From contig LFSQ01000002.1 in NCBI GenBank assembly GCA_001512785.1, forward strand, positions 529-64,528: a DNA stretch of 64,000 nucleotides, given 5' to 3'. Each line of letters begins with the position of its first letter. Position 1 is the first letter of the stretch. This document shows, piece by piece, positions 3,347-61,964 of the stretch. A program made the translations under genes and the position numbers. Below the pieces are notes generated by a model. It did no database searches. It worked only from the letters and a program-made list of their open reading frames with translations, and had not been told where the DNA came from. This DNA is from Syntrophomonas sp. DTU019. GTDB taxonomy: Bacteria > Bacillota > Syntrophomonadia > Syntrophomonadales > Syntrophomonadaceae.

Positions 3347-4524
3347 GATGCTCCCCTCAATTCAGCATAGAAACTCTGCCCGGCCAGCCCTTCCACCGGT
3401 ATGCCCAGGTGCTCGGCTATAGTCTGGCCGACATCGCTAAAACCACGGCGCCGCCCCAGGTTGACATTCCCGGGGAAAGCCGGTCCGTATACCAAAAGGG
3501 GCACACATTCGCGAGAATGGTCGGTGCTGGGGGTAGTGGGGTCATTGCCGTGGTCGGCAGTAATGAACAGCAGGTCTTCGCTGTGCATCAGCGCCAAAAT
3601 CTCCCCCAGGGCTTTGTCGAAGCGGGTCAAGGCCTCTGCGTATCCCAGCACATTGTTCCTGTGTCCGTAAACCTGATCGAAGTCGAGCAGGTTGGCAAAA
3701 ATCAGGCTGCCTTCCCCATCGCCTATGGCTGACAGCAGCAATTCAATGCCATGCTCATTGCCGGTAGTGGGACGATTGTCGCTTACCCCGCGGCCTCCAA
3801 ACAAGTCCTTGATCTTGCCTATCCCAATTACTTTCTGGCCGGATTCGATAATAAAATCCAGTATGTTGCGGGGCGGGGCCAGAGAATAATCGTGACGGTT
3901 GCTGGTGCGTTTGAAGTCCCCGGCCTGTCCGGTGAAAGGGCGGGCAATAACCCGTCCTACGGCATGTTCGCCCTTAAGCAGTTCCCGGGCGGTCTCGCAC
4001 ATGGCATACAGTTCATCTAAAGGAACAACCTCCTCGTGGGCTGCGATCTGAAACACGCTGTCCGCCGAGGTATATACTATGGGGCAGCCGGTTTTCATAT
4101 GGTCGCTCCCCAGTTGCTCGATAATTTCGGTGCCTGAAGCCACCACATTGCCCAGGCACTTGCGGCCGATCCGCTCTTCGAAGGTTTTTATAATCTCCTC
4201 CGGAAAGCCTTGCTCATAAGTAGGAAAAGGCTGCTTAAGTAACACCCCCATGAGTTCCCAATGCCCGGTAGTGCTGTCTTTGCCTTGAGAAGCCGGTTCC
4301 ATCACGCCAAAAGCCCCAATAGGGGTTGGTTGCGCCTCTACCCCTTTAATGTCGGCCAGATGCCCCAGTCCCAGCCGGCTCAAATTGGGAAGCTGCAATC
4401 CGTTTAAAGCCGCAGCGGTATTGACCAGCGAGTTGCTGCCCTCGTCCCCGTACAGTGCGGCATCCGGAGCAGCCCCAATGCCCACCCCGTCCAGGACGAT
4501 CAGTATAGCCCTTCTCTTCATCAC
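3343..4524 (-). CDS. deoB: Phosphopentomutase
   Basis: 393 aa with ILIVLDGVGIG at the N-terminus and the metal-site motif TADHGNDPT. Confidence 0.93.
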   Translation of the reverse strand: MMKRRAILIVLDGVGIGAAPDAALYGDEGSNSLVNTAAALNGLQLPNLSRLGLGHLADIKGVEAQPTPIGAFGVMEPASQGKDSTTGHWELMGVLLKQPFPTYEQGFPEEIIKTFEERIGRKCLGNVVASGTEIIEQLGSDHMKTGCPIVYTSADSVFQIAAHEEVVPLDELYAMCETARELLKGEHAVGRVIARPFTGQAGDFKRTSNRHDYSLAPPRNILDFIIESGQKVIGIGKIKDLFGGRGVSDNRPTTGNEHGIELLLSAIGDGEGSLIFANLLDFDQVYGHRNNVLGYAEALTRFDKALGEILALMHSEDLLFITADHGNDPTTPSTDHSRECVPLLVYGPAFPGNVNLGRRRGFSDVGQTIAEHLGIPVEGLAGQSFYAELRGAS

Positions 4525-13986: not shown

Positions 13987-15681
13987 TCAGCTGCTATCGA
14001 GGCGATGGGGCCATTGCTGCCCTTCCGCCAGCATGTGGCGGGCATGCTGCAGGGTAAGCGGGCTGATATCGTCACCTGCCAGCATGCGCGCTATCTCCTG
14101 CACGCGCTGTTCCTCATCCAGGGGTTGCACTTTGGTAAAGGTCTGCCCCTTTTTAACCTCTTTGCTGATCAGATAATGCTGGCCGGCTAGGCTGGCGACT
14201 AAAGGGGCATGAGTGATTATTATCACTTGATAATTACGGGACAGCTGGGCTATTTTACGAGCCATAGCGGACAGGGCCTGCCCGCCCACACCGGCATCTA
14301 TCTCATCAAAAACCAGGGTAGGGACCTCGTAAACACCTGCCAGGACTATCTTTAAGGCCAGCACAAAGCGAGATATTTCCCCGCCTGAGGCCACGCGCTG
14401 CAAAGGCTTCATTTCCTCCCCGGGGTTGGGAGAAAACATCATTTCCACCCGGTTGATCCCGGTACTGCTGGCTTCGCAGTCCAAAACGCGTACTTCGAAG
14501 CGCAGCTCAGGCATGTTGAGCTCAAGCAGTTCTTGACGCACTTTTTCTTCCAACTGCAGTGCGGCCTGCTTTCTGAGCCGGCTCAATTGCTCTGCAGCCA
14601 GATAGTAATCCTTTTCTTGGCGCGCTATCTCCTCGGTTATTTCCTGCTGGCGAACCTCTTCATGCTGCAGATAATCCAATTCCTGCTGAGCCTTTTGCAG
14701 GTATTGTAAAATCTCCTTGATACTCTGGCCGTAACGGCTTTTCAGGCGCTGCATCAGATGCAGGCGCGCTTCCACCTCATCGAGGGAATAAGGCTCTTCC
14801 TCCAGTGTCTGCCTGTAGGCAGAAATCGAAGCAGCCAATTCTTCTATAGTGAAGCGGATTTCCTGCAAAGCCTCTTTTACCGGTGCAAAGAAAGGATCCT
14901 GGAGCGGCTGTATCACCTGCATGGCTGTGGAAATAAGGTCATAAGCGTTGTTGCCTCGTTCCTCCGCGTAGAGCAGCTGCAGCAGGCTTTCGCTGGCCGC
15001 CTGGAGCTTCTCCACATTGCGCATGCGGTCGCGGATGCTCTGCAGTTCCTCTTCTTCATTTTCACGTAAGTTGGCCGACTGGATTTCATTGATCTGGTAG
15101 GTCAGAAAATCTATGCGCTGCAGCTTGTTATGCTCCCGGCTCTGCAGCTCTTCCAGTTCCCTGCGCAGCCGGCCCAGCTGTTTATAAGCGCGCTCTACCC
15201 TGGCCAGTATCTCCGCGCTTTCCGGACTGAGGCGGTCAAGGTACTCTAAATACATATGGGGCTTCAGTATGCTGAGGTGATCATGCTGTAAATGCATATC
15301 CAGCAGCCATGAAGAAACCTGCTTGAGAACGGCAGCGGTTATTACCCTGCCATTCAGCCGGGCCAGATTCCTGCCGTCAGCGACTATTTCCCGGCTCAAA
15401 ACCAGCAGGCTTTCATCCTGCTCCAACAAGCCCTTCCCAACCAGCATGGCCTTAAGCTTGGGCAGCCGGGAGATATCAAAGCTGGCTTCAGCAACCGCTG
15501 CCCGGCTAACGTCGCGTACCAGCTCTTTCTGCGCCCTGTCCCCCAGTATCAATCCCAGGGCATCGACCACAATTGATTTGCCGGCCCCGGTCTCTCCAGT
15601 CAATACGGTTAATCCGGGCTGAAAGGATATTTGCACATTGTCAATGAGGACGAGATTGCTGATATAGATCTCTAACAACAT
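13987..15681 (-). CDS. recN: DNA repair protein RecN
   Basis: 564 aa. It has Walker A GETGAGKS, long coiled coils and a C-terminal SGGE signature with Walker B (LVFDEIDAG). Confidence 0.95.
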   Translation of the reverse strand: MLLEIYISNLVLIDNVQISFQPGLTVLTGETGAGKSIVVDALGLILGDRAQKELVRDVSRAAVAEASFDISRLPKLKAMLVGKGLLEQDESLLVLSREIVADGRNLARLNGRVITAAVLKQVSSWLLDMHLQHDHLSILKPHMYLEYLDRLSPESAEILARVERAYKQLGRLRRELEELQSREHNKLQRIDFLTYQINEIQSANLRENEEEELQSIRDRMRNVEKLQAASESLLQLLYAEERGNNAYDLISTAMQVIQPLQDPFFAPVKEALQEIRFTIEELAASISAYRQTLEEEPYSLDEVEARLHLMQRLKSRYGQSIKEILQYLQKAQQELDYLQHEEVRQQEITEEIARQEKDYYLAAEQLSRLRKQAALQLEEKVRQELLELNMPELRFEVRVLDCEASSTGINRVEMMFSPNPGEEMKPLQRVASGGEISRFVLALKIVLAGVYEVPTLVFDEIDAGVGGQALSAMARKIAQLSRNYQVIIITHAPLVASLAGQHYLISKEVKKGQTFTKVQPLDEEQRVQEIARMLAGDDISPLTLQHARHMLAEGQQWPHRLDSS

Positions 15682-15710: not shown

Positions 15711-16184
15711 TCAGGCATTTAGCAAGGAGGTAAAAAGGCTCATCACTTCGCCTACCGCTGTGCTGGGTTTAACCACGGCGATGATGGTGTCGTCACCGGC
15801 TACCGTGCCTAATATGAACTGGTGTTCATAAGCATCGATTACAGAAGCTACCGACTGTGCTCCCCCGGCCACGGTTTTGATCACGATGATGTTCTCGCTG
15901 TAGTCGCAGCCAAGCACCAATTCTTTGAATATGCGCTGCATACGCTGGAAAGAATTCTTCATCACCGGGCTTTCAGGCATGTTATAGCGATAGTAAAACC
16001 CGTCAGCTGTCTTGACCAGTTTCAATTCCTTGATATCCCGTGAAACCGTGGCCTGGGTAACATCGAAGCCGCGCTGTTTTAACAACTCACAGAGCTCTTC
16101 CTGTGTGCTTACCCGCTGTCCGGCGATAATGTCCAGAATGGTAAGATGGCGCTGTGCCTTCATCATTGCCTCCTGTCTTTTCAC
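15711..16184 (-). CDS. argR: Arginine repressor
   Basis: 157 aa with a winged-helix N-terminus (TQATVSRDIKEL) and the C-terminal oligomerisation motif GTVAGDDT. Confidence 0.92.
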   Translation of the reverse strand: MKRQEAMMKAQRHLTILDIIAGQRVSTQEELCELLKQRGFDVTQATVSRDIKELKLVKTADGFYYRYNMPESPVMKNSFQRMQRIFKELVLGCDYSENIIVIKTVAGGAQSVASVIDAYEHQFILGTVAGDDTIIAVVKPSTAVGEVMSLFTSLLNA

Positions 16185-16277: not shown

Positions 16278-17105
16278 CTATGGCCGCTGCGACAAGCCCT
16301 CAAAAGGCAGCAAACGGCTGTTGATGGACTGCAAGAAAGGCTTTTCTTTGAGCTTTATCAACGGCAGCAGATGCCTGGCCCGGGTAATTTCGACCCAATT
16401 CTCCTGGTCGGAGAACAGGCAAACCTGCCCATCCAGACACAACATGGTCTGCCCCCACTTTAAAGAGCGCAAGCGCACCCTGCGGTCGGGATTTAATACC
16501 AGGGGTTTCCAGGAAAGCATATTGGGGGCTAACGGTACCATTACCAGGGCCATCATGCCTGGATCCAGCAGAGGCCCGCCGGCTGACAGTGAATACCCGC
16601 TGGAGCCGGTCGGAGTGCTTACCATCAGCCCGTCCCCCCGGTAAAGATATGCCGGGCCATCATCGATCTGCACCTCGAACCTGATCATACGCGCCCCGGC
16701 GGCTTTTACTGCCGCCTCATTGAGACACTGGTATTCTGCCTGCAGCTTTTCCCCATTGAATACCTGCACGGTGAGCATCAAGCGGTTTTCAAGGCCATAC
16801 TGCCCGGCGATTACCCTGGGCAGATAATCTGGGAGTTCACTGGCCTCGATATTGCTCATCGAACCGACCGTTCCCAGATTCACCCCCAAAATAGGTGTCT
16901 GGCTTTGCCCATAGCGCCTGGCAGCCCTCAGCATGGTGCCATCCCCGCCCAGGACGATCATCACATCGTATCGCTCAGTGGAGGCCTCTTCACGTCCATC
17001 ATCAATATCGCACTCAATCGAGCGGGCTTTCAGCCATGCCGCTACTTGCTCGGCCATAGCGGTGGTATGCTCGCGGCGATGATTGGTTATCAATAAATAC
17101 TTCAT
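16278..17105 (-). CDS. nadK: NAD kinase
   Basis: 275 aa with the GGDGT motif (VLGGDGTMLRA) and a TPTGSSGYSLSAGGP segment. Confidence 0.9.
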   Translation of the reverse strand: MKYLLITNHRREHTTAMAEQVAAWLKARSIECDIDDGREEASTERYDVMIVLGGDGTMLRAARRYGQSQTPILGVNLGTVGSMSNIEASELPDYLPRVIAGQYGLENRLMLTVQVFNGEKLQAEYQCLNEAAVKAAGARMIRFEVQIDDGPAYLYRGDGLMVSTPTGSSGYSLSAGGPLLDPGMMALVMVPLAPNMLSWKPLVLNPDRRVRLRSLKWGQTMLCLDGQVCLFSDQENWVEITRARHLLPLIKLKEKPFLQSINSRLLPFEGLSQRP

Positions 17106-17917
17106 TGCTCTTTCCTCAGCTGTTGATGGGCTTCATGAACGGTCTGATCCACAGCCGGTAAACCGCCTGTACTGCTCCCCTGCGGGTCTGGCTTAAAATG
17201 CAACAAATACTCAATGTTCCCTTTCGGGCCTTTAATGGGCGAATAGGTAATACCCTCACAGTACAGGCCTGCACTTCTGGCATAGCCTATCACTTTGTTG
17301 ATAACCTCAATATGGACCTCTGGGTCCTTTATTACCCCTTTTTTGCCCACTTTGTCCCGCCCGGCCTCAAACTGGGGTTTTACCAGGCATACAACCTGGC
17401 CGTTTCGCTTCAGCCAGGGTGTAATCGCAGGAAAAACCAGGGCAGTGGAGATAAAAGAAACGTCTATGGCGATAATATCCATCATTTCCGGCAGTTCTCT
17501 ATCGCTTATATGGCGTATATTGGTACGCTCCCGGTTGATCACCCGCGGGTCATTGCGCAGCTTCCAGTCCAACTGCCCGTAGCCTACGTCCACAGCGTAA
17601 ACCCTGCTGGCGCCATGCTGCAGGGCGCAGTCGGTGAATCCGCCGGTGGAAGCCCCCACATCCATGACCACTTTATCGGTGAAATCGAGGCTAAAAGCCT
17701 CTATGGCTTTCTTAAGCTTTAAACCGCCCCGACTGACATAACTAAGTCCCCCGCCATGAACCTGTATGTCTGCCTCTTCAGCAACCAGTGAACCGGGCTT
17801 ATCCATTTTCTGACCGTCAACATAAATCTGCCCGGCTTGAATCATGGCCTGGGCTTTTTCCCGGCTGGCTGCCAGGGCTCGGCGGTGAACCAGCACATCC
17901 AGTCTAACCTTTGACAA
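17102..17917 (-). CDS. tlyA: TlyA-family rRNA 2'-O-methyltransferase (hemolysin A-like)
   Basis: 271 aa with an S4-like N-terminus and the FtsJ SAM motif DVGASTGGFTD. Confidence 0.9.
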   Translation of the reverse strand: MSKVRLDVLVHRRALAASREKAQAMIQAGQIYVDGQKMDKPGSLVAEEADIQVHGGGLSYVSRGGLKLKKAIEAFSLDFTDKVVMDVGASTGGFTDCALQHGASRVYAVDVGYGQLDWKLRNDPRVINRERTNIRHISDRELPEMMDIIAIDVSFISTALVFPAITPWLKRNGQVVCLVKPQFEAGRDKVGKKGVIKDPEVHIEVINKVIGYARSAGLYCEGITYSPIKGPKGNIEYLLHFKPDPQGSSTGGLPAVDQTVHEAHQQLRKEQ

Positions 17918-19811
17918 TCTTCAGCAACTCCAATTCGTGGCCCTTTTTAAGCAGTTCCGGCCAGCGCTTCAGTATAGCTTCCACAATCGAGGCGGGGTCT
18001 ATATTGAGACACTCGAACAATAATTCGGTTTTGCCATGCTCGACGAACTCATCGGGGATGCCGATCCTCAAGCAGTCGGCTGAAACAGCAGATTCGGCCA
18101 GCACATCCAAAACCCCGCTGCCAAACCCGCCATTGAGGCAATTTTCTTCCATGGTCACTACCCTTGGCTTGGCTTTGGCCTGCTGTATAATACTGGCCGT
18201 GTCCAGGGGTTTGGCAAAGCGGGCATCCAGGAGAGCCGCTGATATCCCCAGACGGCTCAGTTGGTCCACTACCTCCCGGGCAATATTCACCGCTCGTCCA
18301 ATAGCCATAATCGCAATATCCTGGCCTTCGCATATCAGTCTGGCTTTGCCTGCCTCCAGGCGATCAGCGGAACCGGCATGGCTTTCCGCCACCCCCCGCG
18401 GATAGCGGATAGCTACTGGTCCGGGCAGGGTAAAGGCGGCATCCAGCATCTTGATCAGCTCTTCTTTGTCTGAAGGGGCCATTACAGTAAGATTGGGAAC
18501 ACTTCGCAAATAGGTCAGGTCAAAAACACCATGATGAGTGGGCCCGTCTTCGCCCACCAGCCCGGCGCGATCTATAGCGAAGATAACCGGCAGATTCTGC
18601 AGGGCTACGTCATGAATGATCTGATCATAGGCCCGCTGAAGAAAGGTAGAATATATTGCCACTACCGGCCTTAAGCCCATTTTGGCCATACCGGCGGCTA
18701 AAGTGACAGCATGCTGTTCACATATGCCCACATCGAAAAAGCGTTCCGGAAAATGCCGGGCGAATGAGGTTAAACCGGTGCCGCTGGTCATAGCTGCGGT
18801 GATCCCCACCACTCTTGAGTCGGTTTTGGCCCGGTTGAGCATGTATTCGCCGAATATCTCCGTATAGGTCAAAAAAGGCTTTTTTAACGGATGCCCGGTT
18901 TCCACATTGAACGGGCCGATGCCGTGGAAAAGGTCGGGCTCTAAAATAGCCGGCTCATAGCCGCGCCCTTTCTGGGTGATAACATGTATCAATACCGGGC
19001 CTTTCATCTGCTTCACATTGGACAGCATCAAGTGCAATTCATCCAGATCATGGCCGTTAACCGGTCCTATGTAGGTAAAGCCCAATTCTTCAAAGAGAAT
19101 CCCCGGCACTACCAGGTTTTTGACCATCTCCTTCATGCGCCCGGCAGCCCTGGCGATGTTGGGCCCGATAGCCGGTATGCGGTGCAAGCGGGCTTCGATT
19201 TCCTCTTTGGTCCGGGAATATGACGGATCAGTGCGCAGGCGGTTCAAATAGCCGGACAAGGCGCCAACATTCCTGGAGATCGACATCTCGTTATCGTTTA
19301 ATATCACCGTCAGGTCACAGCCCTGATGGCCGGCATGGTTGAGGGCTTCAAAGGCCATACCCCCGGTTAAGGCACCATCGCCGATAACGGCTATGACCGA
19401 GAACTTCTGCCCGGTCAGATCCCGGGCCAAAGCCATTCCCAGGGCGGCTGAGATAGAAGTGCTGCTGTGTCCGGTATTGAAAGCGTCATGGGTTGATTCT
19501 TCAGTCTTGGGAAAACCGCTCAAGCCTCCAAATTGCCGCAAGGTGGACATTTGCCGGCGGCGACCGGTAAGGATCTTGTGCACATAGCTCTGGTGACCTA
19601 CATCCCAGATAATGCGGTCAGTAGTGGTGTCAAAAACCGAGTGCAGGGCTATGGTCAATTCGACTACGCCCAGATTGGAAGCCAGATGGCCTCCGCATTC
19701 TGATACGCTTTGTATCAATAATGCTCTGATCTCTTCCGCCAGCAGGGTCAACTGGGCTTTGTTCAGCCGGCGTAAATCCTGCGGTGAGTCTATCTTTTCG
19801 AGTATGGACAC
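17904..19811 (-). CDS. dxs: 1-deoxy-D-xylulose-5-phosphate synthase
   Basis: 635 aa with ThDP motifs (GHSSTSISAALG, GDGALTGGMAFEALN). Confidence 0.96.
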   Translation of the reverse strand: MSILEKIDSPQDLRRLNKAQLTLLAEEIRALLIQSVSECGGHLASNLGVVELTIALHSVFDTTTDRIIWDVGHQSYVHKILTGRRRQMSTLRQFGGLSGFPKTEESTHDAFNTGHSSTSISAALGMALARDLTGQKFSVIAVIGDGALTGGMAFEALNHAGHQGCDLTVILNDNEMSISRNVGALSGYLNRLRTDPSYSRTKEEIEARLHRIPAIGPNIARAAGRMKEMVKNLVVPGILFEELGFTYIGPVNGHDLDELHLMLSNVKQMKGPVLIHVITQKGRGYEPAILEPDLFHGIGPFNVETGHPLKKPFLTYTEIFGEYMLNRAKTDSRVVGITAAMTSGTGLTSFARHFPERFFDVGICEQHAVTLAAGMAKMGLRPVVAIYSTFLQRAYDQIIHDVALQNLPVIFAIDRAGLVGEDGPTHHGVFDLTYLRSVPNLTVMAPSDKEELIKMLDAAFTLPGPVAIRYPRGVAESHAGSADRLEAGKARLICEGQDIAIMAIGRAVNIAREVVDQLSRLGISAALLDARFAKPLDTASIIQQAKAKPRVVTMEENCLNGGFGSGVLDVLAESAVSADCLRIGIPDEFVEHGKTELLFECLNIDPASIVEAILKRWPELLKKGHELELLKIVKG

Positions 19812-19822
19812 GGTTACACCTT

Positions 19823-20389
19823 CTACTTCTTAAATAATTCCATCCCGGTGAGATCTTCCCACCAGCTGATCACGATAGCGACCCGAAAGATTATCTGATT
19901 GGCGTAATTCACCGCCAGGTGCTTGCCCAGGGCTTTGCCACCCACGGTTGCAGCTGCAATCAGGCTGGTTATAGCTGACCCCACCCAAATAGCATCGACA
20001 AGCGGGAAATGTTTCATTAAGCTTATGGCTATACCGGCTCCTATAGCGCCGCTTAAGGTTCCGGAGATATCTCCCACCACGTCGCCACAGAAATTGGCCA
20101 CCAATCCGGCATTGTGTATCAGCTTGACAGCTTGCCTGGCCCCATATATTTTTTTTGCCGCCTTAGCATTAAAAGGCGGCAATTCCGCAGCGGTTACTGC
20201 TGTCCCAATCATATCAAAAAATATTCCCACAAAAATTATCAGTATTAACAGTAGAACGGCCACTGCTATCTGATTGGCCGCTTTAACCAGTCCCTCAGAC
20301 CCTATGCTCAACAACAGAGCGATGAAAAAGGTTAACAAGGCCATTAGTATAGCAGAAATCAGGTGATTTTTTCGTATGTAACCGGGCAA
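19823..20389 (-). CDS. oapA: Four-TM membrane protein, candidate OLE-associated protein A
   Basis: 188 aa (~21 kDa) with 4 predicted TM helices and Asp-rich intramembrane motifs (FFDMIG, CGDVVGDISG). It starts at TTG, preceded by GGAGG 9 nt upstream. It lies 11 nt upstream of dxs and directly downstream of the ORF-free structured region. Confidence 0.7.
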   Translation of the reverse strand: MPGYIRKNHLISAILMALLTFFIALLLSIGSEGLVKAANQIAVAVLLLILIIFVGIFFDMIGTAVTAAELPPFNAKAAKKIYGARQAVKLIHNAGLVANFCGDVVGDISGTLSGAIGAGIAISLMKHFPLVDAIWVGSAITSLIAAATVGGKALGKHLAVNYANQIIFRVAIVISWWEDLTGMELFKK

Positions 20390-20404
20390 GCTGATTTTCC
20401 TCCG

Positions 20405-21060
20405 AAAATAGTGGTACTGGCAAAAGGTTGTTCATTGAGTAAACGCTGCGACTTAGGTCCAGACGGTTTTCCCAGCAGGACACCCACATGTTGCCATATG
20501 GGCGATTTCCCTTTACGCCTGCTCTGCCGCGTCACCGCCGACAGAACTGGATTGCCACTTAGTACGCACTTTAATCCCCAACGAACCGTGCACCCGCACT
20601 CAGTCTAGGAGTTTTCCTCAACAACCCACATCGATTTCTAGCCTCTTTTGCAGCAACGGTTTCAAGGCGAGCCATGTCATCTCGGCCAAGATGAGCATAA
20701 CCCACATAAGCCTATTCGCCGCCCCCACTCAAGGCAGGCTACACTGCACCCAGCTTGTTACCGGAATGCAGGTTTTCCTGCCATGGAACATGGCAGGCCT
20801 CCACGGATGCATGGGTAGAGCCCGCATGCCATTGCGGATTCCCCACACATCCTTAACCCCCAGCAATGACCCCTGACTGGGCGTCAAAAGCCAATACCAG
20901 AGGCTTCATCGATGTGCCCTTAACGGATTTTTAGCCCCGTCTTTAAAACCGATAGGGTTGACTAGAATACTGCAACCTTCTGCCAGTCTTCACCGTACTA
21001 TATTATATCATGTCTAATATCTGGCTTCCAGTTGCATGAACGGCGGGGATTTCCCTAAAT
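20405..21060 (-). ncRNA. Candidate OLE (ornate, large, extremophilic) RNA; ends approximate
   Basis: This is a ~770-nt gap with no credible ORF inside an otherwise tightly packed minus-strand operon. The order ispA, gap, 4-TM gene, dxs is the reported OLE context. Several local helices are visible: 20777-20797 (perfect 9 bp), 20677-20694 (6 bp) and 20822-20837 (5 bp). Confidence 0.72.
21002..21040 (-). promoter_or_regulatory. Possible extended -10 promoter inside the ispA-oapA gap
   Basis: The minus strand reads TGATATAAT (TG at 21009-21010, TATAAT at 21002-21007). The -35 is weak (TGGAAG). It would start a transcript of about 590 nt ending before the oapA RBS. Confidence 0.3.
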
Positions 21061-21156
21061 TGGCCTGTATTTAAGCGCCAATTGCTATAATTACTCTGCT
21101 GATAAGCCTTGCTTCAATATGCGTATTTATGCTGGCCGGCAAAACGCTTTTGGGTT

Positions 21157-22059
21157 TCAGCTCTGGCGAAACAGGGTAAACCTGGCCAGATCACGCAAAA
21201 AATCAGCCTCCTCACCAAAGCTGCGCAGGCTGGCGATGCACTTGTCCACACTCTGGCGGGCCAGCTCAACAGCGCCTTCCAGGCCGAACAGGCTGACATA
21301 AGTGATTTTTTGGTTTCTCTCATCGCTGCCGATCGGTTTGCCGACCACTCCCTCGTCCCCGCAAACATCAAGAATATCATCGGTGATCTGAAAGGCCAGC
21401 CCAAAGTGCCGGGCATAATCAGTCAGGTCTTCCAGCGCTTGGGCTTTCATGCCCGCCAGTATAGCCCCGGAACGCAAGGCTGCTCGGAACAAGGCCCCGG
21501 TTTTGAGCAGGTGCAGGTGTTCTAACTCCGCCGGGCCGATTTGCTGCCCCTGCCATTGCAGATCCAGAACCTGTCCGCCCACCATCCCGGTGCTGCCGAT
21601 AGCAGCAGCTACTTCCTCAATCACTGCCACGACTGCGTCCGGGGTAACACCACTTACCCCGGCATTGGCCGCTATCAATTCAAAAGCCCGGCTCAGCAGG
21701 GCATCGCCGGTTAAAATGGCGTTGGCCTCCCCGTATACTATGTGGCAGGTCGGCTTGCCCCGCCTCAAGTCATCATTATCCATACTGGGCAGATCGTCAT
21801 GCACCAGCGAATAACAGTGTATCATCTCGATGGCACAGGCGGTCAGCATCACCGCCTCAGCCGGCCTGCCGGCCAGGTGCGCTCCTTCCACTACCAGTAT
21901 GGGGCGCAGGCGTTTGCCCCCATTGGACACGGCATAATGCATAGCTTGATGAATCAATGGCGAATCGCTGTCAACCGAGAGGCTGCCCAACAAGTGGCGA
22001 TCGATTTCCTCTTTACGCTTCTGTAACTCTTTCAAAAACCCGGTTTTGTCAAAGCCCAT
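21157..22059 (-). CDS. ispA: Farnesyl/geranyl diphosphate synthase
   Basis: 300 aa with the first Asp-rich motif LVHDDLPSMDNDDLRRG and the second, FQITDDILD. Confidence 0.93.
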   Translation of the reverse strand: MGFDKTGFLKELQKRKEEIDRHLLGSLSVDSDSPLIHQAMHYAVSNGGKRLRPILVVEGAHLAGRPAEAVMLTACAIEMIHCYSLVHDDLPSMDNDDLRRGKPTCHIVYGEANAILTGDALLSRAFELIAANAGVSGVTPDAVVAVIEEVAAAIGSTGMVGGQVLDLQWQGQQIGPAELEHLHLLKTGALFRAALRSGAILAGMKAQALEDLTDYARHFGLAFQITDDILDVCGDEGVVGKPIGSDERNQKITYVSLFGLEGAVELARQSVDKCIASLRSFGEEADFLRDLARFTLFRQS

Positions 22060-22100: not shown

Positions 22101-22316
22101 TCAGATATCAGCCAACTCCCAGCCGCCCTCCAGCTTCTTTACCAGCTGCTGCACCCGGCCTTCGGCCTTCTGCAGTTCCTGCTGGCAACGCACCGAGAGG
22201 GCGATACCTTCCTCGAATATCTCAATTGAGGCCTGAAGATCCAGGCTGCCGCTCTCCAAGAGGTCCACAATCTCTTCCAGCCTTTGCAGGGCTTTTTCAA
22301 AGCTTATATTTTCCAC
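22101..22316 (-). CDS. xseB: Exodeoxyribonuclease VII small subunit
   Basis: 71 aa, helical, with the typical FEKALQRLEEIV start. It overlaps the end of xseA. Confidence 0.9.
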   Translation of the reverse strand: MENISFEKALQRLEEIVDLLESGSLDLQASIEIFEEGIALSVRCQQELQKAEGRVQQLVKKLEGGWELADI

Positions 22317-23521
22317 CGGGATACAGCCTCCTTCCCCATTACCCTGACTTTTAAATCGGCATCCAGCATCGATATGCGCAGTTCATCGCCCGGCTTGACC
22401 TGTTCCCCCCGAGTCACCACTGCAGTGCCCGACATTACCAGGGCATAGCCGCGCTGCATGGTTTTTAATGGACTGACCCCATCCAGCCTGGCGGTCAGAA
22501 AGGCCAGCCGGGTAGATTTTTGCTCGATTACCATCCCCATGGCCTGATTGAGGCTGAGTTGAGCCTGCTGCAGGCGATCGCTGTGTAGTTTTATCAATTG
22601 CAGCGGGTCTTTCCACACCTTTTTCATCATGATACGATCCAGGGTTTCCATATGGCGTGTGATCTTGCGGGTTATAGCCGCTGTGATGCGCTCCTGCTGC
22701 CTGGCCAGGGTGGCTTCCAACTGGTTTATGTCCGGGACTGCCAATACCGCGGCCTGAGTAGGTGTAGCCGCTCGCAAATCCGCTGCCAGGTCAGCCAGGC
22801 TGTAATCAGCTTCATGACCGATCGCGGTGATAATCGGTATTTGGGATTTATATATAGCCTCTACCACTATTTCGGTGTTAAAAGGCATCAGGTCTTCCCA
22901 TGAGCCTCCACCACGCCCGATAATGATGACTTCTGACTCACCATGCTCATTGAGCAGGCGGATGGCTTCAGCCAGCTCGTACGGCGCTTCAGCCCCCTGC
23001 ACGGCACTGTGCACCAGAAATACCTGACAGCGCCGGTGGCGCTGGCGAATCACCTTGAGCATGTCCTGCAAAGCTGCTCCGTCCTGTGAGGTGATTATCC
23101 CTACTCGATTGACAAAACCGGGGATGGCTTTTTTCCGCTCTATATCGAAGTAACCGGCTGCCTGGCACTTTTCCCTGATCTTTTCCAGGTACAACTGCCA
23201 GGCCCCAATGCCAAAAGGCTGCAGTTCCTGCACATAGAGCTGATATTTGCCCTGCGGGGCGTATACCGCTACTGACCCCCAGGCCAGGACCTCCATGCCA
23301 TCTTGCGGGGTAATGCTGGCTCTCCTGGCCTGGCTCCTGAACATCACGCAGCTTATCACGCTTTCCTGATCTTTCAAGGTAAAATAATAATGCCCGGATT
23401 GGCGGTGGTGCTTGAATCCGGATACTTCGCCCTTCAACCACAGATCAGAGAGAATTACGTCCGTTTGCAGGAGGTGGTCAATGTGCTTATTGAGTTGGCT
23501 TACCGTCAAATATTCTCTCAT
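22304..23521 (-). CDS. xseA: Exodeoxyribonuclease VII large subunit
   Basis: 405 aa with an OB-fold N-terminus (GEVSGFKHH.SGHYYFTLKD) and the catalytic core (GRGGGSWEDL). Confidence 0.93.
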   Translation of the reverse strand: MREYLTVSQLNKHIDHLLQTDVILSDLWLKGEVSGFKHHRQSGHYYFTLKDQESVISCVMFRSQARRASITPQDGMEVLAWGSVAVYAPQGKYQLYVQELQPFGIGAWQLYLEKIREKCQAAGYFDIERKKAIPGFVNRVGIITSQDGAALQDMLKVIRQRHRRCQVFLVHSAVQGAEAPYELAEAIRLLNEHGESEVIIIGRGGGSWEDLMPFNTEIVVEAIYKSQIPIITAIGHEADYSLADLAADLRAATPTQAAVLAVPDINQLEATLARQQERITAAITRKITRHMETLDRIMMKKVWKDPLQLIKLHSDRLQQAQLSLNQAMGMVIEQKSTRLAFLTARLDGVSPLKTMQRGYALVMSGTAVVTRGEQVKPGDELRISMLDADLKVRVMGKEAVSRWKI

Positions 23522-24381
23522 GGCTTTAGATCCGCTTGTTCCCAGGCAGCCCGGGACAAATTCTGCATCAACTTGGCGATCAGCAAAGGCCCGATTCCAC
23601 CCGGCACTGGCAGTAAATAACCGCTCAGCCCGGATACGTCGTTGTTGTCCACATTGCCTTTGATCCCCTCCGGGGTCCAGTGAAACCCGGCATCGATCAG
23701 TAAGGTGCCACTGGCCAGGTGCCGGGCCTTTATGCTTTGGGCTGAGCCCTTTTCGGCAACAACTATATCCGCTTTAAGGCATTGCTCGCCGTCCCAGCCC
23801 GGCATTACCCTGACCTCGCACCCCCTGGCCACCAAGAGGGCGGTCAGGGGCAGAACAAGATCAAATGAATCCCCAATGAGTAGAGCACTGCGGCCTGCAA
23901 TATCGTCTACACAGCGGTTGATGACCTCCATAGCGGCCAGAGCTGCACAGCTGACAAAAAGAGGCCGCCCGCCGATTAACAGCCCGCGGTTGATGGGATT
24001 AAACCCATCCACATCCTTTGCCGGGCTTATAGCCTGCAGGAATTGATCCTGCATGACCTCTAAATGTTCGGGCAGGGGCAGTTGCAGAATAATTCCCTGC
24101 ACATTTTGGTCCCGGTTTAAGCCTTCAATCTCAAGCAGCAACTGATGCCCGGTTACATCCTCGGCCAGGTGCACTATCCGGCAGATGCCCCCAATATCGG
24201 TTGCGGCTTTTTGCTTGAGATTAACATAGGTCTGGCTGTCCTCCTGCCTGCCTACCAGTATGATGGCCAGGGTGGGGTTTACTCCTCTGGCTTGATTCTG
24301 CTGATATAGATCTTGCCTCAACTGCGCTGCCAAGGCGGTGCCGGATATTAATTGCATAAGATGTTGCTTTCCCCCAATCAA
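23518..24381 (-). CDS. folD: Bifunctional methylenetetrahydrofolate dehydrogenase/cyclohydrolase
   Basis: 287 aa with the typical motifs LAIILVG...SQTYV, GIILQLPLP and PVPGGIGP. Confidence 0.93.
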   Translation of the reverse strand: MIGGKQHLMQLISGTALAAQLRQDLYQQNQARGVNPTLAIILVGRQEDSQTYVNLKQKAATDIGGICRIVHLAEDVTGHQLLLEIEGLNRDQNVQGIILQLPLPEHLEVMQDQFLQAISPAKDVDGFNPINRGLLIGGRPLFVSCAALAAMEVINRCVDDIAGRSALLIGDSFDLVLPLTALLVARGCEVRVMPGWDGEQCLKADIVVAEKGSAQSIKARHLASGTLLIDAGFHWTPEGIKGNVDNNDVSGLSGYLLPVPGGIGPLLIAKLMQNLSRAAWEQADLKP

Positions 24382-24410: not shown

Positions 24411-25409
24411 TTATCCGGTTGTATGGGCATCAACCGGCTTGTTGCGGTGGTACAGCATAGCTGCCAGCCTGGCTACCCCTATGGCATTATCGCTGCAAAG
24501 CCTGGGGTGGGCAAAATAGAGCTTAAGTCCTACCGCCGGATGTTCCAGGCGGTGCAGCAGGTGTTCTTTGATGATGCTATTGGCCATCACCCCTCCGGCC
24601 AAGAGCACATGGCGGCAACCTGTACGGGCTGATTCTTTCAATAAGGCCTTTTCCAGGGTTCGGCCCACGGCTCTGAACAGGGTCAAAGCGATGTCCTCAC
24701 GCTTATGTCCAGAGGCTATCAAGCGCAAAACCTGGGTTTCAATCCCTGAAAAGGAAAAGCCCTCATCCCTGACAAAAGTGGTCAGGGGTGGGGTATCCCG
24801 GCCTTCAGACTTTAAGGCCAGCTCTTCCAGTTCCGGTCCGGCGGGAAAGCTCAAACCCATAGCCACACCGACCCGATCCACCAATTGCCCGGCGTGCAGA
24901 TCCAGGCCGGACATGCCGGTTTCAATTTGCAAAACATCTTCATCATGTCGGCCGACCCGCATTATCTCGGAAGTTCCTCCAGAAAAATGAACCGCCAAAA
25001 AACACTCCTGCTGCAGCAGGGCTTCATTGCCCAGCAAAGCCGCCATTATATGGCCTTCCTGATGGCTGACCAGATAAAGCGGGAGGCCGGCAAAAGCGCT
25101 CAATATCCGGGCCTGGTTTTGCCCGGCCAGGAATACCGGCATATAGCTGTCTTTGACCCGGCGAGGCCAGGCGCTGGCTGCAATGGCAACTACCTCGCCG
25201 CTCAACCCCGCGGGCAGGCGGTTAAACAGCTTGGGCAGGTTCTGAACATGAAAAAAGAGAGCCTGTGATTGCCTCAACCCTCTTTCGCCCGGTTTGACCA
25301 TGAGTGGAATGCGTTCATCGACAACCACCTGGTGCTGATGGTTTACCAGTGCTATCGAAGTGGTGTAGGCGCTGGTATCAAGTCCCAGGAACAGAGCCAT
25401 ATTTTTCAC
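24411..25409 (-). CDS. TsaD/Kae1-like ASKHA-fold protein (peptidase M22 family paralog)
   Basis: 332 aa with LGLDTSAYTTS at the N-terminus, the HQEGH metal motif and a C-terminal GGVMANS. It overlaps the nusB 3' end by about 25-30 nt. Confidence 0.65.
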   Translation of the reverse strand: MKNMALFLGLDTSAYTTSIALVNHQHQVVVDERIPLMVKPGERGLRQSQALFFHVQNLPKLFNRLPAGLSGEVVAIAASAWPRRVKDSYMPVFLAGQNQARILSAFAGLPLYLVSHQEGHIMAALLGNEALLQQECFLAVHFSGGTSEIMRVGRHDEDVLQIETGMSGLDLHAGQLVDRVGVAMGLSFPAGPELEELALKSEGRDTPPLTTFVRDEGFSFSGIETQVLRLIASGHKREDIALTLFRAVGRTLEKALLKESARTGCRHVLLAGGVMANSIIKEHLLHRLEHPAVGLKLYFAHPRLCSDNAIGVARLAAMLYHRNKPVDAHTTG

Positions 25410-57749: not shown

Positions 57750-58364
57750 ATGCTGGAGAATAGAATCCGTTCTTTGCAAGGCCGCCGACCCAAGGTTCTG
57801 GGGCATGCTGAAACCTTGAAATCGGCAGTTATCGTGCCGTTGATTGTTGAGGACGATGAAATCTATGTAGTATTCGAGAAAAGGGCTGCCTCTTTAAACT
57901 GGCAGCCCGGTGAAATCTGCTTCCCCGGGGGCCGGGCCGAGCCTGGTGACAAAGGGCTGCAGGCCAGCGCCATCAGAGAAACCTGCGAAGAACTGGGGCT
58001 TAGCCCCGCTGATATAGAAATTATTGCCCCTCTGGATATTATGGTGCATCCTGCCAGCAGCATTATAGTCCCCTATTTGGCATTTATAAAGGATCGCAGC
58101 AAGATAAAGCCCAATTGTGAAGAAGTGGACCGTCTGCTGTTCGTTCCCCTATCCTATCTCTTAAACGTCGAACCGCAGGTTCACGGTATTAAAGTGCGCA
58201 TGTTTTTTGACGAGGATTTCCCTTTCGAATTGATTCCTCACGGCAGGAATTACCCGCTGCGTACCGGAAGGTACGAGCAGTATTTTTATTTTTGGGACGG
58301 CGAAGTTATCTGGGGCATGACCTCTAAGATCCTGAAGCACTTCATTGACCTGCTCAAGGCGTAA
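57750..58364 (+). CDS. Nudix hydrolase (CoA pyrophosphatase-like)
   Basis: 204 aa with the Nudix box GGRAEPGDKGLQASAIRETCEELGL. Confidence 0.85.
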   Translation: MLENRIRSLQGRRPKVLGHAETLKSAVIVPLIVEDDEIYVVFEKRAASLNWQPGEICFPGGRAEPGDKGLQASAIRETCEELGLSPADIEIIAPLDIMVHPASSIIVPYLAFIKDRSKIKPNCEEVDRLLFVPLSYLLNVEPQVHGIKVRMFFDEDFPFELIPHGRNYPLRTGRYEQYFYFWDGEVIWGMTSKILKHFIDLLKA

Positions 58365-60273
58365 CTTCAGACATCTTCTCCACAAACAGCTTGACCACCT
58401 GAGGATCAAACTGCGTGCCCGCACAGCGCTGCAGTTCGCGCAGGGCTTCCTGTTTGCTGATAGGCTGGCGGTAAGGGCGCCCATTTACCATCACATCGTA
58501 GGCATCACACACGGCCAGGATTCGTGACAATAAGGGTATTTTCTCTTCCTTCAATCCCAGGGGATAACCGGTGCCATTCCATGACTCGTGATGCGCCAGA
58601 ATAGCCTCGGCGATAGGCACCAGTTCCGGGGTGGAAAGAGCAATCCGGTAGCCGATCTCAGGGTGTTTCTTCATGGTGTCCCATTCTTCCTCCGAGAGAT
58701 TATCGGCCTTGTCCAGAATGGTGCTGGGAATGGCGATCTTGCCGATATCATGCAAAGCCGCCAGGAGATTCAGGGCATCCAGTTCCGCTTCGCTCATTTT
58801 CATGCCCCGGCCTATCATAGTTGACAATTGCTGTAAGCGCGCTGTGTGTTCCTCGGTTTCATGGCTCTTTTCCCGCAAGGTGCGCTCCAGCGACAAGAGG
58901 AAAGAACTGCGAATACTGCGGCTTTCGATGAGCTTGTTGCGGTACATGCGATCTTCCGCTTCACGCAAGATATCTTCTATACTCTGGGAAATGTCGGTTC
59001 GGATAGCCATTCCTAAGGCCAGACTGACATGCTCCGAACAGTACTCGGTCTTTTTGCAGTTGTTTTTGATGCGATTGCAGATCTCTTCAGCTATTTCGGC
59101 ACTGGTCATAGGCAACAGGACCACAAACTCGTCACCGCCCAGGCGGGCGATAATATCCTCATGCCGGCACGAAGCCCGGAGCACATCTGCGGCTGCTTTT
59201 AAAACCGCATCCCCTTTGTGGTGCCCAAATGCGTCATTGATAAGCTTCAAACTGTTGAGGTCGCCCATGATGATGCTCATAGGAAGCTGCCGGGGAGTAT
59301 CCAGGCGCTTCAATTCCTCCTGAAAGAAAGCCCGGTTGTAAAGCCCGGTAAGGGGATCGTTAAAGCTCAGGTAGCGAATGCGTTCTTCGGCCTTCTTGCG
59401 CTCGCTGATCTCTTCACAGGCAACTATGACCTCAGTCACCTTACCCTGCTGGTTGTATATGGGATTGGCTTTATAATGCAGCCATACTTCCCGCCCCCAG
59501 GAAGACACGAAGTGTATTTCCCCGGTGCCGGGCTTGCCCTCCCTTACCGTCTCCAGCAATTCGTACTGGATCAAAGCCGTCTCCTTCTCGGATTGGGCCA
59601 ATTGATTCAGATGGCGCAGCTCTTCTTTAGAACTGGCTCCCAGGGTTTGCAGCATATAATGATTCAGATCGGTGATGTTACCCTGTGCATCATATTTGAA
59701 CAGACCTACCGGATTGTTCTCAAAAAGCTCCCTATAGCGCTGCTCACTGACCTCCAGGGATTGGCTGCTGAAAGACTGGCTGCCCAGACCCAGGGCTCTC
59801 AAGGTGCGCCCGTTACGGTCTTTGAATACCATTCTGCCGAAGAGACGTACCCACATCCATTCGTCCTGGCTATTTTTGATGCGGCACTCTACCTCATAGC
59901 GTTTATGGCTTCCTTCTATATAGTACTGTGCGGCCTCGATCAGCCGGTCGAAATCCTCTGCATGGAACAAATCCCGCCACTCCTGCAGGGGGCGGGTATC
60001 CTCCTTCCACTCATAACCCAGCACATTAGCCCAACTATCGTTGACATAAATCATGTTGGTCAGGACATTCCAATCCCACAGAAACACACTGCCAGCCCAC
60101 AAGGCCAGTTCGGTGCGTTCCTGATACTCAACCAGAATGTTGTGATTTTGCTTGAGATGCTCAATTTCTTCTTGCAGTCGAGTGTTGTGAGCTAAAACTT
60201 CATCAAATCTATCATGCACAGAGTGAGCGTGTTCTGCGGTAGGCTCTTCATTTACTCTATCCAGGGAATCCAC
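58354..60273 (-). CDS. PAS-PAS-GGDEF-HD-GYP signalling protein (c-di-GMP synthesis plus hydrolysis domains)
   Basis: 639 aa with an intact GGDEF (RLGGDEFVV). The HD-GYP domain carries HDIGK and HHESWNGTGYP. Confidence 0.9.
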   Translation of the reverse strand: MDSLDRVNEEPTAEHAHSVHDRFDEVLAHNTRLQEEIEHLKQNHNILVEYQERTELALWAGSVFLWDWNVLTNMIYVNDSWANVLGYEWKEDTRPLQEWRDLFHAEDFDRLIEAAQYYIEGSHKRYEVECRIKNSQDEWMWVRLFGRMVFKDRNGRTLRALGLGSQSFSSQSLEVSEQRYRELFENNPVGLFKYDAQGNITDLNHYMLQTLGASSKEELRHLNQLAQSEKETALIQYELLETVREGKPGTGEIHFVSSWGREVWLHYKANPIYNQQGKVTEVIVACEEISERKKAEERIRYLSFNDPLTGLYNRAFFQEELKRLDTPRQLPMSIIMGDLNSLKLINDAFGHHKGDAVLKAAADVLRASCRHEDIIARLGGDEFVVLLPMTSAEIAEEICNRIKNNCKKTEYCSEHVSLALGMAIRTDISQSIEDILREAEDRMYRNKLIESRSIRSSFLLSLERTLREKSHETEEHTARLQQLSTMIGRGMKMSEAELDALNLLAALHDIGKIAIPSTILDKADNLSEEEWDTMKKHPEIGYRIALSTPELVPIAEAILAHHESWNGTGYPLGLKEEKIPLLSRILAVCDAYDVMVNGRPYRQPISKQEALRELQRCAGTQFDPQVVKLFVEKMSEVTP

Positions 60274-61466: not shown

Positions 61467-61496
61467 TATATCACCTCCTAATAATGAGCGCCTTAC

Positions 61497-61530
61497 ATCT
61501 TATGATATAAAGCGACGAAAAGTGACTTCT
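61497..61530 (-). promoter_or_regulatory. Possible sigma-E/sigma-K-type promoter of sigK
   Basis: The minus strand reads AC-N17-CATAAGAT (the -10 at 61497-61504), about 30 nt upstream of the start codon. Confidence 0.3.
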
Positions 61531-61682
61531 TCGTCCCGGTATTTTATGGCAATTTCAGGAGGTGACAGGTCTTAAAGCCAATAGAGTAGGGAAACCACTT
61601 GCATGGCCTCACCCTCATTAAACCGCACATGCTCCCCGGCAGCCTGCTGATGGAGGCTCAACAGCCGCCTAAGATTACCTGC

Positions 61683-61763: not shown

Positions 61764-61964
61764 TATCCCACCTCGCTATCACCCTATTAATTTGACTTCT
61801 TCAAGTTTTTCCTTTTTTCTGTGGAATAGTTCTCACACCTGCTGTCCCCTTGTTACATTGTCTTTGCAACAACAATCTTGATTTTGAGTATTCCGCCCTT
61901 TATTGAGCCATCAGTCCGGTCAATGAGAGCCACCTATCCGGAACAGAAAGCCATTGTGATCATT

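Follow-up and report, generated by a model that had tools for sequence, protein, structure and literature searches.

A full-length OLE RNA gene between ispA and oapA in a Syntrophomonadaceae bacterium

OLE (ornate, large, extremophilic) RNA is a large non-coding RNA found bound to the membrane in anaerobic Gram-positive bacteria; the class was described in 2006. To our knowledge, it is among the largest bacterial RNAs whose biochemical function is not yet known. It has been proposed in recent work to span the membrane as an RNA dimer. Several elements of its architecture have been described in the literature: a P1 stem has been described at the termini of the RNA (PMC3413148), a P3/P3.1 stem has been proposed as the membrane-spanning element (PMC12265935), OapC binds a k-turn whose strands have been delimited (PMC9723947, PMC12286853) and the OapB site needs a GNRA-capped P13 hairpin with a single-nucleotide bulge (PMC7936274). 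The A-rich loop of P4 is a dimerisation contact in cryo-EM models (PMC12265935), and P9 contributes a symmetric kissing-loop contact between the two RNAs through its GGCC loop (PMC12286853, PMC12265935). The membrane protein OapA of Halalkalibacterium halodurans has been reported to contain a DxxxD motif and to adopt a CNNM-like fold (PMC11332333), and experiments in B. halodurans have demonstrated an OLE-proximal promoter (PMC3413148). Like OLE, the GOLLD and ROOL RNAs are large, highly structured and non-coding, have no known biochemical function and assemble into RNA-only multimers, but they are unrelated to OLE in sequence or fold and form nanocages, whereas OLE forms dimers (PMC12286853).

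The DNA analysed here, a 64-kb stretch referred to as the window, carries a run of genes on its minus strand, where all of the features described below lie unless otherwise stated, in the order folD-xseA-xseB-ispA-[OLE]-oapA-dxs-tlyA-nadK-argR-recN. Upstream of the RNA, folD (23518–24381) overlaps xseA (22304–23521) by 4 nt, xseA overlaps xseB (22101–22316) by 13 nt and a gap of 41 nt separates xseB from the immediate upstream neighbour ispA (21157–22059), which encodes farnesyl diphosphate synthase (NF045485, 345.7 bits; PF00348, 209.4 bits). Downstream, oapA (19823–20389) lies 11 nt from dxs (17904–19811; TIGR00204, 823.3 bits), dxs overlaps tlyA (17102–17917) by 14 nt, tlyA overlaps nadK (16278–17105) by 4 nt, and gaps of 93 and 29 nt lead to argR (15711–16184) and to recN (13987–15681), with which the run ends. 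The 767 nt between ispA and oapA (20390–21156) are the sole long junction from folD to recN, as noted in the first-pass annotation of this DNA, all others being overlaps or gaps of at most 93 nt. The core-like GC content ascribed to this gap was likewise recovered (50.3% versus 51.8% for the window), and profile matches to the genes confirmed the order and orientation ispA-OLE-oapA-dxs on which the OLE proposal had been built. The reference OLE RNAs, from H. halodurans and, by cryo-EM, from Clostridium acetobutylicum and C. botulinum, have the same neighbourhood, with oapA immediately downstream and ispA, dxs, tlyA, nadK, argR, recN, folD, xseAB and nusB nearby.

A search of the window with Rfam covariance models (cmscan) placed OLE (RF01071) at 20994–20408, with a score of 484.6 bits (E = 3.9e-139) against a gathering score of 50 bits and a match extending over model positions 1–616 of 616 without truncation, so that the assignment decisively passed the first of the tests proposed for it. 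The OLE RNA gene, as delimited by the Rfam match, thus spans 20408–20994, and its helix-closed core, from P1 to P1, spans 20987–20416. The earlier proposal of OLE for this gap holds in that a complete RNA lies inside it, although the RNA takes up no more than 587 of its 767 nt; the ispA side is a 162-nt AT-richer spacer (41.4% GC, compared with 53.0% for the OLE part) whose last part is the OLE promoter. The gap almost certainly encodes a full-length OLE RNA of a Syntrophomonadaceae bacterium, and no observation speaks against this identification. No other credible Rfam family was found in the 64-kb window, even at E < 0.1, and neither was a tRNA or tmRNA; the only further match at E < 0.1, of 27 bits to a eukaryotic lncRNA model, was dismissed as chance. 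All 17 Syntrophomonadaceae loci scanned with Rfam have a full-length OLE directly upstream of oapA, scoring 454–502 bits, and nhmmer located OLE upstream of oapA in 75 of 80 related loci, the remaining five ending at a contig end. A seeming rearrangement upstream of oapA in one locus (L084, GCA_900198705.1) proved to be a run of N beginning inside OLE, with the gene order unchanged.

The host is of the kind in which OLE RNAs are expected, namely an anaerobic or extremophilic member of the Bacillota, as judged from its relatives, its sporulation genes and its occurrence in digesters. Among the OapA homologues listed, the closest relatives of OapA and OLE all belong to the Syntrophomonadaceae; spo0A, spoIVB, spoIIIA genes, spoIIM and sigK are present in the window; and identical DNA is found in anaerobic-digester metagenomes, the same DNA being already present in public assemblies. 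The closest GTDB species representative displays 86% OapA identity.

The fold of the RNA was evaluated in an alignment of 71 sequences, comprising the window copy as first row and 70 related species. In the window copy, 139 of the 147 Rfam consensus pairs are canonical. Across the alignment, 91.4% of the cells are paired, and the compensatory changes anticipated for homologous intergenic regions are present: double changes occur at 86 of 160 pairs, compared with 28–48 in slid controls, and none of 500 shuffles of the 71-sequence alignment reached the observed covariation. The OLE fold is kept by compensatory changes across the 70 related species, and the slid and shuffled controls speak against the model match and the covariation being products of misalignment. 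The three local helices singled out by the first-pass annotation all fall within the Rfam consensus structure, to whose helices the labels P4–P15 were assigned by us. The perfect 9-bp stem CCTGCCATG/CATGGCAGG at 20797–20777 is the OLE stem P7, a hairpin with a UUC loop in which seven of eight counted pairs covary; TCATCT/AGATGA at 20694–20677 forms the tip of P9 around its GGCC loop; and CCGCA/TGCGG at 20837–20822 is P6.1.

Three long-range helices, P1, P2 and P3, lie outside the Rfam annotation and were named by mapping from published text descriptions. The 5' strand of P1, ACUGGCAGAAGGU (20975–20987), pairs with its 3' strand, ACCUUUUGCCAGU (20416–20428), over 13 bp, with changes on both sides at nine of the 13 pairs and 88.7% of cells pairing in the 71 sequences. 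A second helix of 12 bp with one bulged base is formed between 20957–20946 and AAAUCGAUGUGGG (20637–20625) and encloses P4–P9; both-side changes were found at 11 of its 12 pairs and 96.2% of its cells pair. This P3-like helix is likely to correspond to the published P3/P3.1. The P2-like pairs, CAGU/ACUG and CUAG/CUAG, are 100% paired and, being invariant, are uninformative on covariation either way.

Could the locus nevertheless be a decaying, non-functional relic of OLE? Eight consensus pairs are non-canonical in the window copy, and P7 falls below the Rfam consensus length, with 3 nt where the model has 27. However, P7 varies among family members and takes no part in dimer contacts, most relatives likewise leave several of the eight mismatched positions unpaired, and the score of 484.6 bits falls within the range of the 17 relatives scanned. 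The promoter and oapA are intact, and all alignment-invariant positions hold in the window copy, as follows from its being the first row of the alignment. Conservation effectively refutes this interpretation, to which we attach hardly any probability.

The open reading frames in the gap offer no better account of the conservation. Six ORFs of at least 50 aa (52–81 aa) lie within the gap or enter it from the oapA side, in or reaching into the OLE region, and three further ORFs (60–138 aa) enter from the ispA side. The three ORFs of 64–81 aa mentioned earlier agree in number with those of at least 60 aa in the first of these groups, but not entirely in size, which is 64 aa on the minus strand and 81 and 61 aa on the plus strand. 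One or more of the 52–81-aa ORFs might in principle encode small proteins, the helices being incidental. A conserved coding signal in the gap, an observation that would have told against the RNA assignment, was looked for and not found: the ORFs are intact in only 1–15 of the 71 orthologous sequences, the window itself counted, and elsewhere start codons are lost, internal stops appear and indels are not multiples of three. Moreover, substitutions track base-pairing rather than codons, and several of the ORFs are antisense to the conserved promoter-driven strand, which leaves a small-protein origin of the gap effectively refuted and its probability next to nil.

With the OLE assignment in place, the sites at which partner proteins and a second RNA would dock can be followed in the window copy. 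The J4a/5 strand CACAUCGAUGAAG (20904–20916), the 5' half of the predicted OapC k-turn, is identical to the Rfam consensus, and all of its positions but one are invariant in the 71 sequences; when tested at the level of sequence, the strands that would build the k-turn (J4a/5 with J5/6 or J6/7), namely CACAUCGAUGAAG, GUUAAGG and GUGGAGG, are all present and almost invariant. The hairpin P13 (20524–20544; CUGUC-G-GCG-GUGA-CGC-GGCAG), seven of whose eight pairs covary, combines a GNRA tetraloop with a one-base bulge in the stem and is the predicted OapB site, and P14.1 bears a GCAA loop. As for dimerisation, P4 (20922–20941) displays the A-rich loop CUAAAAAU, which is invariant in the 71 sequences, as is the palindromic GGCC loop (20687–20684) at the tip of P9 (20677–20694), and the complementary loops GCCCA and AUGGCA of P5.1 and P6.1 are present and essentially invariant in the same alignment. 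In sequence, the sites for OapB, for OapC and for dimerisation are all intact. Among the ORFs scanned, a part of those in the 64-kb window, neither oapB (ybzG) nor oapC (ybxF) was seen.

The window copy has in common with the reference OLE RNAs the helix set and the conserved joining regions, together with the P13 GNRA loop and bulge, the k-turn strands, the dimerisation loops and the proximal promoter. It differs in its short P7, which departs from the RF01071 model as described above, in the bulged base of P13, which is G rather than the U498 of H. halodurans, and in its host, a syntrophic-type digester anaerobe, whereas H. halodurans is an alkaliphile; these differences are at the lineage level only and affect no defining feature. 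OLE variants 1 and 2 share conserved core nucleotides with the window copy, but P7–P9 are shortened and the OapB site is often missing in variant 1, while variant 2 is devoid of P7 and P8. The window OLE retains P7, P8 in full, a long P9 and also the OapB site, and is therefore of the full-length type.

The protein encoded immediately downstream (19823–20389), a membrane protein of 188 aa, has the attributes of OapA, the partner of OLE RNA: a small size (about 190 aa in the family), four transmembrane helices, a DxxxD motif and, on the cytoplasmic side, a conserved basic cluster. The DxxxD motif is DVVGD at residues 103–107, Asp103 and Asp107 being invariant in 24 homologues, and an invariant block, Ala77-Ala78-Lys79-Lys80, lies inside FNA(K/R)AAKK. 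A search retrieved 569 homologues, and those that are named among the 120 listed are all from Syntrophomonadaceae. The AlphaFold2 model (pLDDT 75.5) contains long helices at residues 7–37, 41–67, 94–125 and 130–161 and a C-terminal helix; simple hydropathy picks three of the four, the helix with the DxxxD motif staying under the threshold. The four best PDB fold matches of the model are transmembrane domains of CNNM/CorB/CorC proteins (7m1t, 7m1u, 7cff), with probabilities of 0.97–1.0 and TM-scores of 0.44–0.56. These domains were found only by the fold search, a comparison of the OapA profile with the PDB by sequence having returned nothing meaningful, and the Pfam CNNM match is weak (23.4 bits, below the cut-off of 28.4). 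Judging from the model, OapA is CNNM-like in fold, yet outside true membership of the Pfam CNNM family, in agreement with PMC11332333. The predicted fold resembles the transmembrane domain of the CNNM/CorB/CorC/MpfA Mg2+ transporters, but OapA has the DxxxD motif, which CNNM domains do not, and, with no Pfam match other than the weak CNNM one, is without the CBS-pair and CorC/HlyC domains of the MpfA type (domain list in PMC11332333). The occurrence of MpfA is reported to anticorrelate with that of OLE (PMC11332333).

Upstream of the RNA, a predicted sigma-A-type promoter (21002–21031) consists of a −35-like CTGGAA (21031–21026) and an extended −10 element, TGaTATAAT (21010–21002), from which transcription would start at about 20995–20993. 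The motif TGnTA(T/C)AAT occurs in 70 of 71 orthologous loci, 5–10 nt (mostly 8–9) before position 1 of the Rfam model, and is preceded at a distance of 18 nt by a conserved tTGgaA consensus. A generic promoter and terminator scan of 19700–21400, whose counts were at chance level, overlooked this promoter because its −35 element has only three of six matches. Two other sites were set aside: from the promoter-like TTGCCA-18-GAAAAT at 20423–20394 a transcript would begin on the start codon of oapA itself, and a terminator-like site at 21223–21204 lies inside ispA. A further idea, that the −35 motif ACTGG(A/C)A acts in read-through transcripts as a mimic or competitor of the P1 5' strand (ACUGGCA), was rejected because the −35 element stays TTGG/CTGG-like where P1 differs (loci L039, L068 and L027), with no covariation between the two.

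The distance from the end of P1 to the oapA start codon is just 26 nt, including a Shine-Dalgarno sequence, GGAGG (20399–20403), 9 nt before the TTG start codon, so that oapA, and probably dxs-tlyA-nadK too, would have to be translated from transcripts that begin at the OLE promoter or further upstream and pass through OLE. This arrangement raises the question of whether OLE acts only in cis, as a riboswitch- or attenuator-like 5' leader of oapA-dxs-tlyA-nadK, and not as a free-standing RNA. The promoter directly before OLE and the short spacer would suit such a leader. Neither a terminator nor a processing signal is apparent in that spacer, and close spacing is a conserved trait, with at most 40 nt in 58 of 69 loci. 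On the other hand, spacers above 40 nt are tolerated in the other 11 relatives, and exceed 100 nt in eight of these. The OLE of B. halodurans occurs as one discrete RNA that is both very stable and highly abundant, and on induction oapA mRNA rises far less than OLE (PMC3413148). Furthermore, three proteins, OapA, OapB and OapC, are bound by OLE, and its mutation leads to phenotypes in trans (PMC9723947, PMC7936274). The RNA dimerises (PMC12286853), and about 25% of its nucleotides are more than 97% conserved, features far beyond the needs of a leader. A purely cis-acting role is accordingly very improbable.

The sequence points to transcription of OLE from a conserved extended −10 promoter of its own, with a start near 20994. 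A functional model can be drawn by homology with a single distant species, H. halodurans, and with cryo-EM structures of Clostridium RNAs determined without protein. In this model the RNA, of roughly 570–590 nt, may fold into two domains, one formed by P3–P9 and the other by P1, P2 and P10–P15. Dimerisation would involve the A-rich loop of P4, the loops of P5.1 and P6.1 and the GGCC loop of P9; the CNNM-like, DxxxD-containing OapA would tether the RNA to the membrane; and OapB and OapC would bind at P13 and the k-turn, respectively. Stresses against which the resulting complex may help the cell include alcohols, cold, excess Mg2+ and poor carbon sources. Most probably it would do so by modulating, at the membrane, an ion-handling activity of OapA, the RNA serving as scaffold or sensor. 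Besides this role in trans, OLE in the Syntrophomonadaceae might double as a 5' leader, obligatory and promoter-proximal, of the oapA-dxs-tlyA-nadK transcript, in which case its folding, dimerisation or processing at P1 could set in cis the amounts of OapA and of isoprenoid-precursor enzymes. We regard this addition as unlikely; if true, it would provide a mechanistic link between OLE and its long-unexplained isoprenoid gene neighbours.

The OLE RNA of the window is an ordinary member of an already known class, for which a Rfam model and a GTDB-wide survey exist (PMC11332333), and nothing new about the class emerges from it; since none of the features tested sets it apart from the family, it brings the function of OLE no nearer. 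Our literature search, which was limited in reach, retrieved no paper on OLE in Syntrophomonas. For the annotation of this locus, an 'empty' gap of 767 nt is replaced by a promoter and a 587-nt non-coding RNA gene, and a 'hypothetical' membrane protein receives the name oapA. For the family, the 71-sequence Syntrophomonadaceae alignment provides clean covariation support for P1 and P3, both of which are missing from the Rfam structure line, and this covariation, together with the conserved proximal promoter, is consistent with earlier experiments in H. halodurans.

The 767-nt gap between ispA and the gene for a 188-aa membrane protein (20390–21156) contains an OLE (ornate, large, extremophilic) RNA, whose identity, fold and conservation were established in this analysis, as were its promoter motif and its linkage to oapA. 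A scan of the whole 64-kb window against Rfam 15 yielded a single above-threshold match, to the OLE family RF01071, at 20994–20408 on the minus strand, which spans model positions 1–616 of 616 without truncation and scores 484.6 bits (E = 3.9e-139) against a gathering score of 50; the only other match in the window at E < 0.1 was a chance 27-bit match to a eukaryotic lncRNA model. The proposal of an OLE candidate in the ispA–dxs gap, made from the sequence alone in the first-pass annotation, is thus real and correctly interpreted, and concerns a previously known RNA. Remarkable as the class is, the copy in the window is ordinary; OLE RNA was reportedly described in 2006.

The gap is the sole long junction in a minus-strand run that comprises folD (23518–24381), xseA (22304–23521), xseB (22101–22316), ispA, encoding farnesyl diphosphate synthase (21157–22059; NF045485, 345.7 bits), oapA (19823–20389), dxs (17904–19811; TIGR00204, 823.3 bits), tlyA (17102–17917), nadK (16278–17105), argR (15711–16184) and recN (13987–15681), all other junctions being overlaps or gaps of at most 93 nt. 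The coordinates and sequence features originally listed for the gap were correct, including its core-like GC content (50.3%, versus 51.8% for the window), and the three helices singled out at that stage sit where they had been placed, corresponding to P7 (20797–20777), the tip of P9 around its GGCC loop (20694–20677) and P6.1 (20837–20822), all on the minus strand. Between nusB and folD lies a TsaD/Kae1-like 332-aa protein (24411–25409, minus strand), which looks like a divergent paralogue, scoring 124.7 bits, well short of the TsaD cut-offs of 207.8 and 296.1, and 92 bits with Pfam TsaD.

Upon projection of the Rfam consensus structure onto the window sequence, 139 of its 147 pairs were found to be canonical. 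P7 is short, 27 nt of the model being represented by 3 nt. Since the copy retains P7 and P8 along with a long P9, the RNA is of the 'full-length' type and differs from the published variants 1 and 2 (PMC11332333); a GTDB-wide survey found OLE in 2,822 genomes (PMC11332333).

Homologues of the 188-aa protein number 569 and, among 120 listed, every named one belongs to the Syntrophomonadaceae. A GTDB scan for this protein, with one genome per species, gave 80 loci, the best from Syntrophomonas sp. UBA4922 (86% identity), with S. wolfei at about 67%. A full-length OLE was located directly 5′ of the protein gene in all 17 loci scanned with Rfam (454–502 bits), and nhmmer with the window OLE as the query detected a homologue in 75 of the 80; in the remaining five, the contig ends no more than about 400 nt from the protein gene. 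Seventy-one full-length copies (80% mean column identity) were aligned with plain MAFFT, not fitted to structure, and compared with the Rfam consensus structure, which was not derived from these sequences, plus a terminal helix. Standard pairs occupy 91.4% of cells, and the compensatory changes that the first-pass annotation had suggested seeking in homologous regions were found, with two-sided changes at 86 of the 160 pairs versus 28–48 when the 3′ partners were slid by 1–3 columns; none of 500 column shuffles reached the observed covariation values. A conserved coding signal was also looked for in the gap and was not found: the short ORFs, which might be read as encoding small proteins, are intact in only 1–15 of the 71 orthologues, and coding is therefore excluded. 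A relic gene is likewise excluded, given that the copy scores inside the family range and that its promoter, its partner gene and the positions invariant in the family are all intact.

Three long-range pairings missing from the Rfam structure emerged from the 71-sequence alignment, all on the minus strand. The terminal helix (13 bp; 20987–20975 with 20428–20416) displays double changes at nine of its 13 pairs, and a 12-bp helix with one bulge, which encloses P4–P9 (20957–20946 with 20637–20625), displays them at 11 of 12, with 96.2% of cells pairing. The third, CAGU/ACUG plus CUAG/CUAG (20972–20962 with 20608–20601), is 100% paired and invariant, and is thus uninformative either way. P1 has been placed at the termini of the RNA (PMC3413148), and P3 with P3.1 has been described as bounding domain 1 and totalling about 12 bp, interrupted by a small bulge (PMC12265935); from such text descriptions, we infer that the three helices are the published P1, P2 and P3.

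OapB recognition depends on P13 having both a bulged single base and a GNRA tetraloop (PMC7936274), and a predicted OapB site is present in P13 of the window RNA (20544–20524, minus strand; CUGUC-G-GCG-GUGA-CGC-GGCAG), while P14.1 has a GCAA loop. OapC targets a k-turn formed by J4a/5 with J5/6 or J6/7 (PMC9723947; PMC12286853), the strands of which, CACAUCGAUGAAG, GUUAAGG and GUGGAGG, are all found in the window and are near-invariant in the family, constituting a predicted OapC site. The dimer contacts observed by cryo-EM involve an A-rich P4 loop, the P5.1/P6.1 loops and a palindromic P9 GGCC loop (PMC12265935; PMC12286853), and the corresponding predicted contact loops are all present and conserved.

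Directly 5′ of OLE, a predicted promoter comprises an extended −10 element, TGaTATAAT (21010–21002, minus strand), and, 18 nt above it, a −35-like CTGGAA (21031–21026, minus strand). With the loci anchored on the −10, T-G-n-T-A-(T/C)-A-A-T was found in 70 of 71; the TG and all but one of the six hexamer positions are invariant or nearly so, and the −35 consensus is tTGgaA. The −10 lies 5–10 nt ahead of Rfam model position 1, which predicts a transcription start at about 20995–20993, a few bases upstream of P1. A proximal promoter in B. halodurans boosts expression of OLE by more than 100-fold, and the very stable RNA has 5′ ends that map close to where P1 begins (PMC3413148). The spacer from the ispA stop codon to the OLE start (162 nt; 20995–21156, minus strand) is AT-richer than its surroundings (41.4% GC) and, across the 70 nt immediately preceding OLE that were compared with relatives, the promoter is the sole conserved element. 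No convincing terminator was found 3′ of ispA, so read-through from the upstream operon into OLE is possible.

Only 26 nt, containing GGAGG (20403–20399), separate the end of P1 from the TTG start of oapA, with no terminator-like site among them, so that expression of the protein gene has to come from transcripts crossing OLE. The spacer is at most 40 nt in 58 of 69 relatives. That OLE is a leader acting in cis only is disfavoured by data from H. halodurans (PMC3413148 among them), and a contribution in cis on top of its role in trans is considered unlikely. A few related Syntrophomonadaceae loci (L012, L027, L065 and L076) carry OLE–oapA inserts of 150–280 nt; that of L012 (locus positions 3823–4000; JAHDSE010000036.1) is a REP-like hairpin array built from nested GACACAAGGGG / CCCCTTGTGTC inverted repeats, and those of L027 and L065 have in common the repeat unit AAAACGC...GAAAGGAAGGCGC.

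The 188-aa protein bears the published OapA signature, which combines four transmembrane helices with a DxxxD motif absent from CNNM domains and has 7M1U as a top structural match (PMC11332333). Residues 103–107 are DVVGD, with Asp103 and Asp107, as well as the KK at 79–80, invariant in 24 homologues. The AlphaFold2 model (mean pLDDT 75.5) has long helices at 7–37, 41–67, 94–125 and 130–161, and its four best PDB fold matches are CNNM/CorB/CorC transmembrane domains (7m1t, two chains, 7m1u and 7cff; probability 0.97–1.0); the Pfam CNNM match is sub-threshold (23.4 versus 28.4 bits).

Anaerobic-digester metagenome contigs share 100% identity with the window DNA over 3.5 kb, and the NCBI assemblies GCA_002385395.1 and GCA_900198705.1 are identical to it outside N runs. 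Their loci (L083, DGDK01000057.1, and L084, FZPS01000085.1, respectively) are exact matches broken by N runs, which start inside OLE (window 20823) in one assembly and inside dxs (window 18705) in the other. An apparently different synteny in L084, where a gene caller had placed an unrelated FAD-binding gene just upstream, proved to be false.

Elsewhere in the window, an intact gene for the sporulation sigma factor SigK (60768–61466, minus strand; 359 bits) is followed by a 604-nt gap (61467–62070) with no ORF of at least 70 aa and no Rfam match at E < 0.1, and then by a transposase with rve and Mu-transposase C-terminal domains (62071–63624, plus strand). A signalling protein of 639 aa that carries two PAS domains, a GGDEF domain and an HD (HD_5) domain (58354–60273, minus strand) is probably involved in cyclic-di-GMP turnover. 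The segment 31778–37229 (minus strand) carries spoIIIA operon genes (AF, AE and AC/AD), a CD1247 N-terminal-domain protein and efp; the spoIIIA genes, together with spo0A, spoIVB, spoIIM and sigK at other places in the window, place the host in an endospore-former lineage, which fits the reported correlation of OLE with sporulation genes.

By homology, the OLE RNA would dimerize, be held at the membrane by OapA and be bound by OapB and OapC, and may help the cell to tolerate alcohol, cold, excess Mg2+ and poor carbon sources. Given the kinship of OapA with CNNM Mg2+ transporters and the anticorrelation of OLE with MpfA (PMC11332333), the favoured reading, which stems from the literature, is that the RNA may serve as a scaffold or sensor and thereby modulate an ion-handling activity of OapA.
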